In this document: piece after piece, positions 4,818 to 50,300 of the stretch | Numbering within the stretch: position 1 is the first letter of the stretch | Layout of the letters: every line of letters begins with the position of its first letter | Source: Microthyrium microscopicum | Lineage: Eukaryota | Assembly (NCBI GenBank): GCA_010405405.1 | Contig: MU004240.1 | Location: forward strand, 572,316 to 636,315 | DNA length: 64,000 nucleotides | Direction of reading: 5' to 3' | Program-made: the position numbers and the translations under genes | The notes under the pieces: generated by a model | Databases searched by the model: none | Seen by the model: the letters and a program-made list of their open reading frames with translations, nothing else | Told to the model about the DNA's origin: nothing

Positions 4818-6568
4818 ATGAAATCCTTCCTTTTGGCTTTGGCTGTTGGCCAGACCCTCGCCGCCGCAGTACCACCGCAGCTTAATCAAGGAACGAAAAT
4901 TGTCAAGAGACAGTCGGCGGATCTAGTATCAGCCCTATCAGCGCTCATGGGACCAAGTGGTGGACTTCTTGGTTCGACAATAAAGGGAACACTGGGAGAA
5001 TTCAAAGGAAGCGAGCAAGCCAGTAAGATTAGATTGTGGTAACAGGAATTCGACTTGAGAACTAACACTCTCTCAGCGGAAGCATACATGGAACTTGCGA
5101 AATCGATGGGCGCCACTGAAGATAAGGCTGGTTATATGGGAGTTGTCAGCAATCTCTGGACGAATCGTATGTCGCAACTGTGCAATAAACTTGTGATTAA
5201 AACTAATGTGAAACTAAAGAGGGATACGGAAAGGTACAGCCAAGTGCAGGATCAGCACCACGACGAGAAGACAAGCCCGCAAGAACAAAGGTTGCTGGTT
5301 CTCAATCGGTCAAGATGCGATACGGTCCTTACAAAGTTCAAAACTCTACGTACAAGAGTGCAATGGACGAATACGGAATGCTTGCCAACTATGTGGAAAG
5401 AAACATCGAGAAGTGAGTCCATTATCAGGCCCTAAGCAAAAGGGGTTTAAGTTAACAAAAATAGGCCCTGTGTAAGATGCACACTCCTCGGAATGACTGC
5501 AGGTCTCGAATACGAAAATGGTAAAAACGCCAACATCGACACCGGTCTGTGGCTGCACCAGTATGTTTCTCTCTAATATCATTTTGACCTCGATGCTAAT
5601 GAAAATACAGCATGGTCATGTTCAACGTTGGAGACGACCGCCAGGATGCTACTTGTCACCAGAGAGAGATCTCGGTGCCTCACGTTTTCATCGGAGAGAC
5701 CCCACGAAACTCCGAACGCTTCTTCCTCTCCGGTAATGAGAGAACTCCCGTCATGTTCACGGAGTGGGGAGTAGGAGATGCCGGATACAATATCAAAACC
5801 TCAGACAAGCTAGCAGTCATTATCGATATCATGAACGATACTCCTCGAGATGTCGTAACGTGGCTCACCATTCAATGGGATTTCATTGACGGCCATCCAT
5901 ATGACTACGAAATCAAGCCAATTTGGCTTGATGCCCGACAATGTGGTACATCTGAAGTTAACCCACCCGCTGGACAAAGTAAGTGAATCAACCTTTCAAC
6001 ACATACCAAATTCTAATTCCTATCCTAGAAAAGTTCACAATTGATTATAAGTGGAAATCTGATGTTGCCGGACAAATTGTTGGGACTATTGAGCATCTAC
6101 ACGACGGTAAGATTTCTATCTTCCAGTTCAGAAGGTTATTGTTGCTAATAATCCGCAGGTGGTACAAACATGACAGTCTCTATCGACGGAAGACTGGCTT
6201 GCGACAGTGAATCCCTTTATGGAACCAAACCCGAATACATCAGTGCACCAATGGCACCAATGGCACCAGCTCCAGCTCCAGCAACAAGCGGTACTGCTGC
6301 TGCAGGAGGACACGCAGGTCACGGCAGCGCCACACCACCTGGGGCTGCTGGAGGAGGACATGGACATAGTATGGGTGCAGGAAAGCACATCAGTGTACAA
6401 AAAGCCTGCTATGGACCTTCGCTTTTAGAAAAAACGTTGAAGATTGGACAGACAGTAGCCATGTCAGGATACTACGATTACAACAAATACCCCGGCCAGG
6501 TCCATGAGGATGGCAAGCCAGATGAAGTTATGGGACTAGGCATTGTATATTACCGGGTCAGACGCTAA
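4818..6568 (+). CDS. Uncharacterised secreted protein (multi-exon) with HH / HxH / Met motifs suggestive of a PHM-like copper monooxygenase fold
   Basis: Signal peptide MKSFLLALAVGQTLAAA and a KR site. Spliced exons give 'SVKMRYGPYKV', 'GLEYENGKNANIDTGLWLH/HMVMFN', 'ERFFLSGNERT', 'EHLHD/GGT' and 'DEVMGLGIVYY'. Stop TAA at 6566-6568. Confidence 0.8.
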
Positions 6569-9463: not shown

Positions 9464-9973
9464 TCAGATGAAGTCCCAGGTAAGCGAGGCTCGGCCAACG
9501 CCTAGGGGGACGCCTAGTGCACCCCAGACACCAGTAGTAGCGTCGAGGTCTCCAGGGTTGCAGCTAACGCCTACCATGAACTGTTAGCTATTTGAATTGT
9601 CTCCGAAATACCTATACTTACATCTATCCACAACAGTGGCGACGTAGTTCTGTCCTTGTCCATTCGCGGTGGTGATGTGAACCTTACGACCACAGTAAGG
9701 ATTGTTGTTTGGATTGCCACCAGGAGTGGCAGGGTCGAAGATTGCGTGAGAGATTGCGACAACGGCATCACCGTCGCCGTTGTTGTAGCCGCAGGCTCCA
9801 AGACCTGGGGCGTAGTAGGTGAGTTGGCCTGCCTCCTGGGCAGACTCGGTATTTCGCTTGAGCATGGCGCTAGAAATTGTTAATGCTTTCATTAGTCGTT
9901 GTAAAAGGGAAACTAACCGGCCGTTGACGGCGCTTACGACTAGAGCGACAAGGAAGGCTTTGAATGCAACCAT
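9464..9973 (-). CDS. Secreted RlpA-like double-psi beta-barrel (expansin-like / Asp f 7-like) protein
   Basis: Signal peptide MVAFKAFLVALVVSAVNG, then 'GQLTYYAPGLGACG...VVAIS...NPNNNPYCGRKVHI...ATVVDRC/VSCNPGDLDAT...GVGRASLTWDFI*'. Two introns. Confidence 0.9.
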
Positions 9974-10328
9974 GATGATCAAGTTGTTGGATGAGGTTGA
10001 GTTGATTGTATAAGAGAGGATTGCGTGAGGAGCTTTGGTTGATATAGTTTTGGCGGTGTTGTGCAAGTAGATGTTGTGTTTGAAAGATGGAGAAAGTTTG
10101 GAAAAGCTGTCAGAGCAATGGTTTAAATAGTGTTAAAATTGTCGAAATCGACGTGAAATTCACTTTGTGGTCCAGGACCAGTGACTGACGCAAACCGTGA
10201 CAGTTACCTCACGCTATTATTTGCTAAGGTGAAGGTGATCATGCTTCCGACCTCAAAATTGACGCCGCTGTGTTGGAATGGCGCAATCGATCAGAATGAG
10301 GAAATTCTCAGAATAACACGTGCGTTGA

Positions 10329-14088: not shown

Positions 14089-14839
14089 ACTCTGCTATTG
14101 ACTTCCAAGCATAACTTCGCGAAGACAACCTTACAGCTATGGGGGCTGTTCCTTTTTATCGTAAGGTAAAATGGCAGATTAAATTGCCCTCTCAAGCTAC
14201 CATATATAGAGTTCGGCGAAGAAATTATTTCCATACGATATTGTTTTAGTGAAGTTATCGTGAGGAACTATAACGGAGTCAACTCCGCGGCAGCAACAAC
14301 AACAAATTTATGACTTTTTCAGCTCAGGCGCGTCGACAAATCAAACCATGCGCCCAGCATTTCGGAGCGCCTTTGGCTTTTTATACACCATGCACCAGGG
14401 CGGCAATGCTCTAGATTTGTCTCTCTGTTCAATTCTTGGCGGCCTTCTTGTCACAACACCACTCACATCTCTTTCAACCCCCGCAACTGGCGTCACCCCT
14501 AGTGATGGCTGGCGTTAATGTCCAGCCTCGAACCTTTGTCCTCTATTCCGTTTTTACAGCCAAGCACCAGTGGTTTGCTCCGCCGTGTCAAGTGCGCACG
14601 AAGCAGTTGATGCCAAGTTTCAGCAGAGCCCCATGGCGATGAAGGTAGGCGAACCGCAAAAAGGGGAAGGTCCGCCGCAGATCTTGGTGTTTTGCGATGG
14701 ACCTTAATTCTTTCTTTGGCGCAGGTCTTTACAAAATGAGCAATACAATCATTTGAACTATACCCACACTCTTTGTCTATCGACTTGTTGAACTCCTATC
14801 AATCGTTTCGAATTCTCGGGGCCTCTCTTAGGAGTCGAG

Positions 14840-17800
14840 ATGGCCAAGGAGTCGGAGTTTAACACTGGACAGAGGAACGTTAACGACGGAAAATTCGGAT
14901 CGCGCCGATATCTCATCAAAATATACTCTCTTTTCGCTCTTTTAATCGTCACACTCGCTTTGATCGGAATCCTCGAGTATGCGAATCGAGGACTGCCAAC
15001 CAACTCCGGAGCGCATTACAATCCATTGAGCACGGGAACCGAATCCATTTCTCATACAGCAAAAGCCACCTCTAGTGGCCAGAGTACTCTTTTGGTCACA
15101 AAGACGGGCAATGTTCGGAAACGACAAGTTCAGACTTTAGTCCCAGGAAATGTATCAGTCGACATAACTTCGACTTCTTCGTCCTCTTCGCTATCAACTT
15201 CATCCTCTGCATCAATCACAGCAGCTACAACTGAGCTGTTTGTTCCTCCAGTAGTCACTGCCGCTCCAGCATCAACATGTCCAGGTGTCTCTCAAGGATG
15301 TACTTGCCCATCTGACAACGAAGTCCCGGACTGTAGTTGTACTGTAAATTCTGCGGCCGCCATCTGCACTTGTACATTTCTCAGCGACACGCCAGATGAA
15401 TCTGGAGCCAACACTCATTACTTTCGACAATGTACCTGTCCCCCAGATCCATGTACAACGTGCATGTGTCCAGCTGGTAAGTAAATTCCCATATGACTCG
15501 TACCCAACGTTGGCATCGTTCTGTGTTCTGGTGTAAATGCGCTATCGTTCGAGGCTAGCCGTCGAAACTCTAGCGAAATGTCATTCCTTTCTCAATTGCT
15601 ATGCGACCCACCGCATGACAAAATATGTGGCGCGCTCCCATCCACTACGATGGCTACTATAATTCACGCTTCGTTATCGAGTGCTTTATTTACCATACAA
15701 GACGCTCGAGCTTTCACGCCTTATCGAATGCATTGGCAAATATAGCACCTCGTGATGAAAAGAGATACTGGAAGCCATCAGCGTTACTGGGAGCGTGCCA
15801 TTTATCTTTGCCATGCATTTTGCGGCTTCTCATCAACCCCCCTGATCAGCAAACAAAAACTAACAGGAATAGACCCGTCTGGAGTATCTTCCCGTAGAAC
15901 GCCCTGTTCATGTCCTGAAGATCCAGTTGCATCAGGCTGCTCTTGTGTAAGCTCAGCTCCGTTCGACTCTACATTGACGATGTGTGATGGTGCTCGAACC
16001 TGTACATGTGGTGTACTTGTCAAGCAAGCGCAATGTGTTCCGCCAGTGGCCGTCTCAAGTTCGTCCAGTACTAGCACAACATCGACAACATCGACTCCTG
16101 AGCCCGTAACAAACTCTACGACATCATCTAGCACTATTTTCCCTTCCTTTACTCCAGTCATCAACACAACGGACATATCCTCAAGCTCTTTTCCATCTCC
16201 GTCTTCGAGCATAGTATCGAGCGTCACGCCCATTGCCACGTTGAATTCGACAACCCCTATAATTCGCCAGACGCCAATTCCGTCTATTGCTCCGAACTTA
16301 ACAACTACCTTCGATCCCACTGCCAATTGCCTCGGGGCAGAAACAGGTTGTGCCTCGATTCCCATGGTAATACTGACGACCACCATAAACGAGAATAACT
16401 TTACAACGGTTGTGCCAGTCACTATCATTCCATCTGGACCTGTTATCGCCAATAGCTCTTCCGTTCCAGCATCTCTTTCCAGCTCAATTGACCGGAGCGA
16501 AACTCCGGTAATTCTTTCTGCATCCCCACCAACGAGATTACCACCAACGACTTCCGTATCTGTATCGTCCCTTCCAGTCTCTGTCCCTCCTGGCCAAACA
16601 TCGGTTACCCCTATCGTATCAATGGTGACGACCACCAATTCTCGAAACCAAGTTATAGTAACACCAATCACTGTAACTCCCAGTGTTATTGCGCCGATTA
16701 TATCGCTATCTACCACTACGAATGCTGAAAGTAAAGTCATCGTAATCCCGGTGACGGTAGTCCCGAGCTTGCTGGCACCAATTGTGTCGTTATCAACCAG
16801 CACCAATTCTCAGGGTCAAGTTTTCGTCAACTCAGTCACTATTACACCTACAGCAACTCCGTTGGCACCCTCCAGACCTCCAATCTTATCCCTTTCAGTT
16901 GGTACAAATAGTCTGGGTGTGGTGACAACCGGCACAATTACTTTGACTCCTGCAACAACGGCCCCAACTGGTATTATTTTCTTCGTTTCCAACTCGCAGA
17001 TAAGCAGTGATGGTAAGTTCTCGCAAAAGACTACAAGGTCTTTTTGAAGCGCATGGACTGTCATGGTAATCTTTTCTAACGAATTGCAGGTACGGTAATT
17101 GGCGTAACACCAGTCACTTTTCTTCAAGCGCAGGCAAATCCATCTCTTCCTGCCATCACTTCTTCTGGCTCGGTTCTTAGTATTCCTACAGCTTATATCG
17201 AGCCCAATGCAACGCCAGGCCCGCAAAGTGGTGGTTCTGGAGCGGGTGGAGGAGGAGGTGGTGGTGGCGGTACAAACACACCTGGAAAGACAAGTTCGTC
17301 AAAATTCACCCTTCGCGCCTGGCCACAAGCAAAGACTTTCTTGGGAGGTTACATGCCAGTTATACTTGCCAAGTTCTACAACATGGCCTGGGGAACGGTG
17401 TTCTATGCCGCTGTCGACTCTGCTGCGGTGAACATGCTCACCAATCCCAATGGAGCCACTGTCGCGCAATTGATTAGTGGCATGGATGGCGCTGCTTGGC
17501 TGTCTTTTGTTCCGTTCATTGCATCCATGGCTGCCGTGCCTTTTGTTACGGACAGCGTGTATTTCGACACTAATTATGGATGTGACAATCCCAATCCGTT
17601 GAACCCAACAAATCCGTGTTGGCCACCCAAGATGACTGCCAATACTTGGGTCATTCGAACCGTTCAGAGTTTATTATCAGTCACTGCCCTTTCTACGGTG
17701 GTGTTGATTGCCATGTGGTTCAAAAAGCCCCATGGAAGTACAAACGATCCAACGAGCATTGCGGCAGTTGCAGCGATTGCAGGCCATCCTGATGTGCAGC

Positions 17801-18797
17801 GAGACTTTGCTGTTGACGTCAATACCAGTGAAAGTGACTTGAAGAGGATGATGAAAAACAAGCGGTATACGTTGACAGAGTTCCCTGGCGATGGTACACA
17901 ACTTTACGGCTTGGTTCCCATGAATGTTCCAGATTCTGATGGGAAGGACAGTTTTCTTTCCAAAGTGAAGGGTTTCTTCGGCTCCATCTTTGGTTCAAAG
18001 TGGAAGAACAAGGCCTTTGCTTTGGATGTGATGTTCGTCGCCTACCTTATCGGTCTTCTGGCAATTGTTGGAGTTCACATTGCCAACGTGGACAAGACCT
18101 CTTTGATGGATATTTTCCAAGGTAGCTCGGTTGGCAAAAGGATCTTCTTCGCTGTCCTTGCTGCTGTGGTTTCAATCAATCTTGGGCGTATTGAACGAGG
18201 TATGAAATCCAAAGCGTACCTACCGGATCTGCAAATAACACAAAGCTAACTATTCTTTCAGACACACAGACTTTGACCCCGTACGCGGAGTTACGAAATC
18301 TAAATGCGACGCCAAAAGAGACCATCCTGCTCCGTCGACACACCATACCCTTGACTTCAATACTTCCGATGCTCTTAAATCGACACTACTTTGCCTTCAC
18401 CGTGGCGTTTGCTGCTTTGCTAGCAGAGTTTTTGATCATCACATTGAGTGGTCTTCCCTATAGGCCTGGCCAATTGCGTTCAGAGTTTGTCTTCTGCGCC
18501 ATCAGCTCATGTATCATATTGGTGAATCTGATCATCGTGATGATCGGATCGATGGTTTGGCGCGCCTTTGTTGTACCTGAACTACCTCGCAAACCAGACA
18601 ATGTGGCAAGTGTCATGACCTATGTGTGTGAAAGTAGAATGGTCCGCGATTTTGCTGGACTAGAGAGAGCGAGTCAGAAGGAAAGAGATAAAGCGATCAT
18701 TTCATTGGATAAGAGATATGGCTATGGGATGGTTGAGAAACAAGTTGGGAAAAAGAGCTGGGCTGTTGACGATATGGGAGGAAATGCTGGGAGGTAA
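14840..18797 (+). CDS. DUF3433-type multi-pass membrane protein with Cys-rich and Ser/Thr/Pro-rich extracellular region
   Basis: Exons ~14840-15476, ~15867-17012, ~17090-18199 and ~18261-18797. N-terminal TM, then 'GGYMPVILAKFYNMAW', 'DPTSIAAVAAIAGHP', 'LTPYAEL', 'LPRKPDNVASVMTYVCESRM', 'KRYGYG'. Confidence 0.8.
15609..15822. mobile_element. MITE, third copy, inside the ~390-nt first intron of the DUF3433 gene
   Basis: Left gcatgacaaaatatgtggcgcgctccca; right tgggagcgtgccatttatctttgccatgc. Internal 'gttatcgagtgcttt' is shared with the 7505 copy, and 'ttatcgaat..a.tgg.aaatatagcacct' with the 11427 copy. Outer ends are approximate. Confidence 0.8.
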
Positions 18798-47353: not shown

Positions 47354-50300
47354 GGGGACCGTCAGCCAGTAATTTTGGCGCCAGGATTTGAACTCCTCTG
47401 AACTGAACAGATCTACAGATCTAGCCTAAAGTAGTGATTATATACGTTAGTGGTAATTTTGCGTAATATTATGTAGGGATAAATACTTATATATAAATTT
47501 CCTTTATATGCGTTTTTTAGCTATGATCTTACTTAAAATACTACTAAAATAGATACTATTAAATAGCGTTTAATAATAATTACTATAGTAGTAATAATTC
47601 TACTACTTCTATATCTTATAATAGCTAAGGATTAAAGAGAGAGAGAACTACTACTAGAATACTACTATTTTAACTAGAATCTTAAGGATAGATTAGACTA
47701 CTAAATTGTTATTAAGTATTAGTATATTACGCTAAATCTATATTAAAGAATGCCTATAGTACTAATTTATATAGCGTAAATTTTTAAAGCAAGAGATCTT
47801 AAAGCTAGTAAAGCTCTTTAATCTTAAGAATCTTTCTCTACGAGATTATTTAAATCTATACTAAAAGAGGCCCTTTCTGCTTTATATAGTATTATATAGG
47901 TTAGCAAAAATATATACTTATAATAATATCTATTAGCACTTTAGTAAAAGTATAATATACCTAAAGACCTACTTTAATACTACTATTATATATCTTAACT
48001 AACGTTATACTAAATTCCTACTTAAATTCTATCCTTTTTTAAACGTAGAAAGATGTTGCTAATACTCTAAAGTAATTAATTGCGCTAGTAGTAGTAATAT
48101 CTTTTAGGGTTACATTAATAAGACCTATATTAATATCTATAGGCCTAAAGGACTAATTTAGTAGTTATTATATAGTAGATATGATAAAGCTTACTGTTTA
48201 AAACACTAGGTCGTTTGCTATCCTAATAAATTAATAATAGTAATAGATTTAGGATATCTAAGAGGTTTAAACAATCTAGGCATATTACTAGCGTTAGGTC
48301 TTAAAGATAAACTTTAATAAGTTAGTATTTATCCTATATAGATGTAAATATAACTTACTTCTTTTAAATATTTAATAAAGGCTTAAAATTACTACTATAT
48401 AGTGACGTAGCCTATTTAAACAATGATTTAATTATATTACTATTCTAAGAGAATCTAACCTAAATTTAGTACGACTTTAATAAATAGATATCTAAATATC
48501 GTATTGCTATTAAGTAGGTATTTAGTAATATAAAAGCCCTCTTTAAGGGAGAGATATCTAATTTTAGATTAGGTCTATAGATAGGATTAATACTAGTTAA
48601 AGTGTATATATTAATATTATTCTTACTTACTAACTACTATACCTATTATTAAAGGAATGTAGTATTTTCTTGCTTTTAAATTAATCTACTAACTATTTAG
48701 TAGTATCTTAATCTAAATAGTATATTTAATAATATAGTAGATAAAGGGGATTTAGAAGATATTAAGTATTTATTATAGTGAAGGGTAGAAAAGAAGTTAT
48801 AGAGTAAAGTTAGATATTCTTATTAAAAAAGGAGAAGTTAATAGGGTAGGGCTAGCTAATTATTTAACCCTAGTGTATACTTTTAAAGCTTTTAGTATCT
48901 ATTATAACATTTCTATAAAAACTAGCTTTTATATTTACTACTAATTTATATAAGAAATACTAGAATATCCTTCTTAAAGCCTATTATTGCAAAGACTCTT
49001 TAATATGCCCTTTATCTCTATTATCTCTAAGCGTATAATCTTTACCTCTTCCCTTAATTCTATAACTTTAATCCCTCTACTACTACTACTACTACTAATA
49101 TTCTTATTATTAATAATATTCCTATAATAAGTACTATCCCTATCTAAATTTATTCTATCTAACTAAAGAACTAGATAATTATAAATACCTATAACGCTAT
49201 TGATTTTAGCTATGAATTTTTAAATTCTATAACCCTAAAGAATACTTATATTCCTACTTCAAACTAGTAGAGCCTATGACCTAGTGGGAGTTCTAAGAAC
49301 TAGTCTAGAGCGAGAGGTAGTTGCTTTAATACTCTAATCTAGTGCTAGTAATAAAGATGTTAAAGGTAATAGTAATAATAGTAGATACGAAGTATCTTTA
49401 GGCTTAATGGTATTTATCTTAACATCTTTATCCTCTTTAATACTAATTAGAAAAGCTCGCTTCTTAGAGAACGTAAGGCTAAGTATTTCTTAAAGTTCTA
49501 TAGTATCTTTATAGCGTTAATGAATAGCATCTTATAGGGACCTCTTCTATTAAATAGTATTCTTATACCTTTAGAATGTCTTTATAAATAGGTCTAGGTT
49601 AATGTAGAATTTATCTATTAGTATAATATATCTTAACTCTTTTTCTAGTTTAATAATCTATAGTTTAATAGCTTTCTTAATAGCCTATTAAAGAGCCTAT
49701 CTAGAGAGGCCTTATAGTAAACTAGTATCACTTTTATACTTAGCTATAATATCTTTCTACTACTAAGTCTTCTATTTAGTAATAGCGTTACTACTATTAC
49801 TACTATACGCTTATCTATAATGATTTGTAACCCTAATAATATTAATAAGGGTGTAAGATTTGTATTCTAATTGCTAGCGTATTTCTTAACGTAAAGATAT
49901 AGTTAAAGGTACCCTAGTAGACGCCTTAGTAGCTACTTAACCTCCTCTTCTATAAGAGTGCCCTCTAGTAGTAATTTAGCTAGTAGAGGGCTATATTAAT
50001 AGAATTTAAAGAGCTTATAATAAGCTCTAAGAGTCGTTCTAGCTATAACTATCTAATACTATAGTGGTTTAATTTTATGAGTAGTTGTTAAGAATTGTTA
50101 TCTAATCTTTATGCTGCTATAACTCCTATTAAGACTTAAAATACGCTAGATTCTATGATATATTCTATAAGTCTAATATTGGCGTAGCCCTTAGAGATTA
50201 AGGCTATTATAATAGGAATCTTATTAGCTAAGAATTGTCTAGTAGTAGAGGAATTAAGTTATCTAACTCTAGATTAATTTGGATTAATAGGTATTAAAAT

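Follow-up and report, generated by a model that had tools for sequence, protein, structure and literature searches.

Copper type II, ascorbate-dependent monooxygenases carry two uncoupled coppers about 11 Å apart and perform ascorbate- and O2-dependent hydroxylation. To our knowledge, two-copper enzymes of the PHM type have been studied almost exclusively in animals. Since the 1990s, Nod19 proteins have come up in work on nodulation, stress, virus infection and apple scab, with no biochemical function assigned.

PAM is reported to be missing from fungi and land plants (PMC6529398, excerpt). V. inaequalis has 39 Nod19-family rows among its non-enzymatic effector candidates, with expression peaking early in infection; the same source calls Nod19 function 'currently unknown' and labels the AlphaFold model a double-stranded beta-helix (PMC9632046, excerpts). 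Its main text never uses the word 'monooxygenase', and 'peptidylglycine' does not occur in the eight supplements searched. In bean, Nod19 has been validated as a target of miR398b, a microRNA of the copper economy, and follows copper status (PMC3882225, excerpt), while Arabidopsis NOD19 has a signal peptide, a membrane anchor and no assigned function (PMC10326430, excerpt). In the openly searchable literature, we found nothing tying Nod19 or PF07712 to PHM or to copper catalysis; a Nod19-PHM fold link may already stand in subscription papers or on the InterPro/Pfam clan pages.

Here we describe a gene from a 64,000-nucleotide stretch of the Microthyrium microscopicum genome, referred to as the window. 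With a probability of about 0.6, its 479-residue product would be a secreted oxygenase with two non-coupled coppers that belongs structurally with PHM and DBH and has had its N-terminal site rebuilt.

The gene and its product

The gene lies on the + strand and has these parts:

4818-5022, 5077-5166, 5220-5412, 5465-5560, 5611-5978, 6029-6106 and 6159-6568, + strand: exons
5023-5076, 5167-5219, 5413-5464, 5561-5610, 5979-6028 and 6107-6158, + strand: introns
4818-4910, + strand: putative signal peptide (about residues 1-17) and short propeptide up to KR, from hydropathy and a dibasic scan, cleavage placed by inspection
4911-5166, + strand: helical N-terminal extension (about residues 32-99), from DSSP helices and the alignment

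Removing the six GT-AG introns, each 50-54 nt long and with a branch-point-like motif, leaves a 1440-nt coding sequence for 479 residues and a stop, with no internal stop. An acceptor for intron 2 at 5221 was ruled out, as it breaks the frame and gives 16 stops. Six exon frames scanned against Pfam before splicing gave no useful match. A search with exon 5 retrieved a 479-residue hypothetical protein of Microthyrium microscopicum (P0001) at 100% identity over the query, and this database sequence agrees with the spliced product. Judged from the sequence and the database gene model, the gene is real and intact, with seven exons.

An earlier note on this DNA had described a secreted, Cys-containing protein with the motifs WLHHMV, EHLHD and DEVMG, and the spliced product agrees. 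The N-terminus is hydrophobic in a hydropathy scan, with no second hydrophobic segment, and the six Cys are each retained in 94-96 of 96 homologues. The second His codon of WLHHMV is split by intron 5561-5610, EHLHD falls in exon 6 with the following Gly codon split by intron 6107-6158, and DEVMG occupies residues 465-469. The KR at residues 30-31 is a Kex2-like site in the dibasic scan. The helical extension after it is confined to the closest fungal relatives and precedes the part that aligns with PHM. An N-glycosylation sequon, N270-D-T, immediately follows M269 (5834-5842), and further ones are at N140 and N347.

Other features of the window are as follows:

1-2322, - strand: DUF6536 membrane-protein gene, upstream and divergent
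9584-10132, - strand: small secreted-looking protein with no Pfam match at E <= 0.01 (unspliced frame), which we take to be RlpA/expansin-like from its appearance
14792-18797, + strand: large DUF3433 membrane glycoprotein gene, rich in Ser/Thr and Cys
48001-50000: AT-rich block (GC 0.26 versus about 0.46 elsewhere), which may be a repeat mutated by RIP

Among the gene's neighbours, DUF6536, DUF3433, serine carboxypeptidase and flavoprotein genes were found and no redox partner.

Relationship to the Nod19 group

The sole Pfam match of the 479-residue protein is SURNod19 (PF07712), at 20.5 bits (E 2.4e-4). This is below the gathering cut-off of 25 bits, which 4 of 16 close homologues tested pass; a protein about 47-50% identical to ours (P0009) scores 32 bits. 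Near-full-length homologues, chosen by coverage and length out of 165 collected proteins, number 96. PF07712 is matched by 65 of them at E <= 0.1 and the PHM domains PF01082 and PF03712 by none, and the 479-residue protein likewise matches neither. The library search gave 1016 relatives at E <= 0.001, 150 of which were listed.

Clusters of the ESM Atlas are close to the protein at 0.95-0.96. SURNod19 makes up 20-32% of the neighbouring ascomycete clusters and 82-93% of the actinobacterial ones, and one cluster at 93% has a TM of 0.71/0.84. By these matches the protein is clearly homologous to PF07712 members and belongs to the Nod19/SURNod19 group, with a weak Pfam match of its own.

In the M. 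microscopicum genome, 63 family matches fall at about 43 loci, or 46 with extra PF07712 matches, an estimate because many matches are weak. Of 301 genomes sampled from the phylum to which a Streptomyces genome belongs, 46 also matched the family profile (four unpublished genomes included). At five Streptomyces and Nonomuraea homologue loci inspected by eye, the neighbours are TetR-like and large regulator-like genes, with no pathway evident.

Predicted fold

AlphaFold2, run with a 96-row alignment, gave a model with a mean pLDDT of 88.2 and a pTM of 0.85. Helices lie N-terminal of a core that starts at about residue 110 and is nearly all beta, in keeping with the beta-rich protein first proposed, and the structural alignment with PHM begins at model residue 105-110. 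The predicted model has the two beta-sandwiches of the copper type II monooxygenases (PHM/DBH/TBM). PHM entries came top in Foldseek (best E 6.6e-9), with DBH and PNGase F next. VIA-align over 48,161 chains gave a Z of 15.4 for PHM (rmsd 5.0, 248 aligned) versus 9.7 for DBH and 8.4 for PNGase F. The PHM fold anticipated in the earlier note, which had named PHM and PNGase F for comparison, is the model's best match by both programs, with a loose whole-chain fit in Foldseek (TM 0.34 by query and 0.49 by target, rmsd 8.4). PHM and PNGase F are grouped in one clan (PMC8812541, excerpt). An ESM feature search leaving out PF07712 clusters had PHM-type copper monooxygenase clusters as its three best hits, at 0.85-0.86, the level of a lead.

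Profile searches of the PDB with two family profiles (A1 and A2) returned zero matches at E <= 10, and a third profile (A4) found cupredoxins only, through the tails of bacterial members, and no PHM. Five bacterial PHM-like proteins found via PF01082 (L058-L062) connect the two groups: sequence searches with them retrieve rat PHM and human DBH at E 7e-6 to 9e-6, and their C-domain aligns with that of the Nod19 family, the HxH and the Met of one falling on those of the other (E about 5e-5, probability 66-69%). The link of the family to PHM is thus structural and two-step, with no direct sequence-profile match.

The CuM-like site

Three conserved positions lie in the C-domain:

6094-6102, + strand: His340-x-His342, CuM-like pair, each His in 95 of 96 homologues and aligned to the bacterial PHM-like HxH
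6530-6532, + strand: Met468, CuM-like thioether ligand from covariation and profile alignment, in 93 of 96 homologues
6386-6388, + strand: His420, conserved extra His, in 80 of 96 homologues

The His-x-His and distal Met that make up a CuM site are present as H340, H342 and M468. Mean-field covariation between the strands of H340 and M468, a weak signal from under 180 rows in which two control strand pairs had no clear register, is best at register 808 (mean z 1.21). This register sets H340 opposite M468 and so supports the CuM-like site independently of the model. Through such strand registers, covariation also indirectly supports a clustering of the His and Met ligands in space.

The five PHM-like ligands singled out in the earlier note (H194/H195, H340/H342 and M468) are each found in 93-96 of the 96 homologues and co-occur in 92; six including M269 do so in 79. 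HH, HxH and M are invariant in a 35-row alignment of fungal and actinobacterial sequences. The protein has nine other His, eight of them in just 1-17 of the 96, the exception being H420, so the His/Met set is conserved beyond chance. H420 was ruled out as a CuH ligand by its position in the C-domain. It aligns, with low confidence, with a Gln that matches Q272 of PHM, a second-shell residue of CuM hydrogen-bonded to the ligand H242 (PMC12164859, excerpt).

This conservation bears on whether the protein binds copper at all. A PHM fold that is metal-free or holds another metal, as a PNGase F-like hydrolase or a carbohydrate-binding effector, would have a precedent in PNGase F, which shares the fold, and would suit the non-enzymatic class given to the V. 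inaequalis members (PMC9632046, excerpt). We consider it highly improbable: HH, HxH and Met have the order, position and near-invariance of the PHM copper set, and the Z of PHM exceeds that of PNGase F by 7 units. It is also improbable that the protein is a copper oxidase or reactive-oxygen enzyme in which one site or both would carry out uncoupled chemistry on O2 or H2O2. Such activity would fit the proposed Nod19 role in oxidative stress, but that role is drawn from expression correlations only and the His, His, Met set at CuM is exactly that of the coupled hydroxylases.

The CuH-like site and its third ligand

The candidate ligands of the second copper are in exons 4 and 5:

5556-5611, + strand: His194-His195, CuH-like pair, in 96 of 96 homologues, the His195 codon split by an intron
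5825-5833, + strand: Asp267-Ile-Met269, candidates for the third CuH ligand

A CuH site combines His-His with a third His. H194 and H195 are in place, and the residues at both candidate third positions, D267 and M269, are not His. The earlier note had seen no third His and suspected a remodelled site, and the alignment bears this out. Among 172 rows with HH, taken from 176 covering the site and 203 aligned, position 267 is E in 96, D in 50, M in 17, H in 7 and Q and G in one each. Position 269 is M in 139, H in 10, A in 8, V in 5, K in 3, Q and D in 2 each and I, E and L in one each, so that 20 rows carry a residue other than His, Met, Asp and Glu there. PHM itself depends on its three CuH His, which counts against the two-copper reading: the substitutions H107A, H108A and H172A leave at most about 5% of the activity (PMC12164859, excerpt).

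Actinobacterial homologues help to align the two candidates with PHM. Position 269 is Met in 13, His in 10 and Asp in 3 of 26 (left from 30 loci once three in unpublished genomes and one interrupted by stops were set aside), and the His-269 forms read M-x-H-N, paralleling Q-x-H-Y of PHM. Register 462 is best in 39 of 40 overlapping covariation subsamples (side peaks at 460 and 464), so that H195 faces D267 and L193 faces M269; in PHM, H108 contacts Q170 (PMC12164859, excerpt; PMC6123673). The His-269 relatives, this register and the PHM contact favor D267 as the counterpart of Q170 and M269 as that of H172. On this alignment Met269 is probably the third CuH ligand. A role for Asp267 instead, or a site shared by both residues, is a lesser possibility. 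A weak, ungapped profile alignment of the N-domain (local mode, probability 17-45%) aligns the PHM-type His with D267 rather than M269. Position 267 is also the more constant of the two ligand-capable sites, and position 269 lacks a ligand in many divergent members.

Of the 39 V. inaequalis Nod19 rows, 26 were inspected by eye, and Met occupies position 269 in 7 of these. Where Trp precedes HH by two residues, residue 269 is mostly Met (7 of 9), and where Tyr takes the place of that Trp, Met is absent. The corresponding codon here, W192, is at 5550-5552. Tyr192 might substitute for a lost ligand, and in actinobacterial members residue 192 is often His or Met. H219, invariant in 17 close relatives, was rejected as a general third ligand, as it is in 17 of 96 homologues overall.

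Other conserved features

Two further elements are specific to the family or unusual in composition:

5732-5743, + strand: family-specific GNER motif (residues 236-239), candidate substrate-binding or second-shell residues
6242-6385, + strand: Ala/Gly/Pro loop (residues 372-419), disordered (low pLDDT around 388-412), with 4 His and 3 Met

E238 of the GNER motif is invariant in the 35-row fungal and bacterial alignment. Met makes up 11.5% of the disordered loop versus 4.1% of the core across the 96 homologues, 71 of which have at least two His/Met in the loop, a possible copper-recruiting element.

Arg240, Asn316 and Tyr318 of PHM bind the peptide C-terminus (PMC12164859, excerpt). Their equivalents are I338, L470 and I472, and Arg is absent from the six commonest residues at position 338 across the homologues. 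With these replacements peptide amidation is unlikely, and the protein falls outside PHM proper.

C210 and C306, both in exon 5, are nearly invariant and in different subdomains, and D207, R231 and D302 covary. With these three residues, the two Cys may tie the domains together, limiting an open/closed hinge of the PHM type. Direct covariation support among Cys pairs was found for C358-C427 only.

Electron supply and bacterial relatives

A cupredoxin-type C-terminal motif, C-x2-H-x2/3-M, is present in 14 of the 26 actinobacterial homologues. All 10 that have His-269 are among these, and the His-269/cupredoxin proteins probably form one clade. The tail of the actinobacterial profile matches amicyanin (E 5.8e-8), and a Pfam cupredoxin is above cut-off in one of the 26. 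In one actinobacterial ESM Atlas cluster, 38% have a plastocyanin/azurin fusion. The cupredoxin fusions suggest that the Nod19 family undergoes redox turnover.

One protein of 1018 residues (P0090) joins a Nod19-type domain to a complete ferric-reductase module. No second fusion of this kind was found among 522 candidates, and it may be a merged gene model. The M. microscopicum genome has 19 ferric-reductase and 3 cytochrome b561 matches, none adjoining a family locus; the closest ferric-reductase match is about 31 kb from one.

Ten actinobacterial homologues (L029, L031-L034, P0096, P0127, P0143, P0159 and P0164) have an N-terminal multi-pass membrane domain with conserved His, and a long linker rich in His. 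In L032 this membrane domain had no Pfam match. In four actinobacterial PHM-like proteins (L058-L061) the His3 site is complete, and at least two of them carry a CxxCH haem motif; 301 genomes gave five strong matches.

These relatives bear on a reading without turnover. A His-to-Met change favors Cu(I), and two His2Met sites and a His/Met-rich loop could hold extracellular Cu(I) for uptake, buffering or delivery to other cuproenzymes, a role proposed for the LPMO-like X325/Bim1 proteins. The loop is retained in most homologues, the third ligand is variable, the actinobacterial linkers are rich in His and bean Nod19 tracks copper status (PMC3882225, excerpt). We nonetheless think a purely copper-binding role unlikely, since the paralogues are divergent and number in the dozens (about 43 loci here and 39 rows in V. 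inaequalis), which better fits substrate diversification, the cleft residues E238, R239 and H420 are invariant and not ligands, and the cupredoxin fusions indicate electron transfer.

Proposed function

As a two-copper oxygenase, the protein would be secreted and then trimmed by Kex2. H340, H342 and M468 would hold the catalytic copper, CuM, where O2 would be activated. H194 and H195 with M269, a His2Met set replacing His3, would hold a second copper for electron storage and transfer, with D267 in its second shell or as an extra ligand. This copper would be recharged by an outside reductant, perhaps a small molecule or a cell-surface reductase; in some bacterial relatives a fused cupredoxin would do this. 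The family-specific E238/R239 and H420 would hold a substrate in the cleft, where it would become hydroxylated, and this substrate would be something other than a glycine-extended peptide. We would guess at a plant-surface or apoplastic molecule, such as a cuticular lipid, a phenolic or a wall component, with paralogues covering different ones, given the large expansions in M. microscopicum and Venturia and the early-infection expression in V. inaequalis.

Tentatively, Nod19 of fungi, plants and actinobacteria could be a third, unrecognized branch of the non-coupled two-copper monooxygenases. Its fungal part would have His2Met/His2Met sites and dozens of secreted paralogues in leaf-associated ascomycetes, and would be a new class of enzymes for the extracellular oxidation of plant-surface or apoplastic substrates. 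If so, copper enzymes would include both the plant Nod19 controlled by miR398 and the 'non-enzymatic' candidates of V. inaequalis. The predicted PHM fold and the conserved copper ligand set give the Nod19 family a directly testable function, and the natural His-to-Met change at CuH would offer a ready probe of how H172 and the electron-transfer copper act in PHM, which is disputed. Were the substrate a plant-surface molecule, a class of secreted fungal copper oxygenases would be added beside the LPMOs.

Comparison with known systems

PHM (PDB 1PHM, 1SDW and 3MLL) shares with the 479-residue protein the predicted tandem beta-sandwich, the secretory pathway and a disulfide-rich make-up, as well as HH, HxH and the distal Met in matching order and on matching strands. 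Identity is about 10%, the third CuH His of PHM is replaced here by Met269 or Asp267, and the 479-residue protein has in addition the helical N-terminal segment and the His/Met loop. DBH (PDB 4ZEL) and tyramine beta-monooxygenase share the catalytic-core fold and the CuM ligand set. They differ at 12% identity, and the 479-residue protein has an altered CuH site and showed no DOMON domain. In the Nod19/SURNod19 family, HH and HxH are as here in all 26 V. inaequalis rows inspected. Like our protein, the five bacterial haem-c-fused PHM-like proteins (four of which look haem-fused or were found via a haem-fused protein) have the same domain order and an aligned HxH and Met, but they retain the third His in Q-x-H-Y and a partial PF01082 match.
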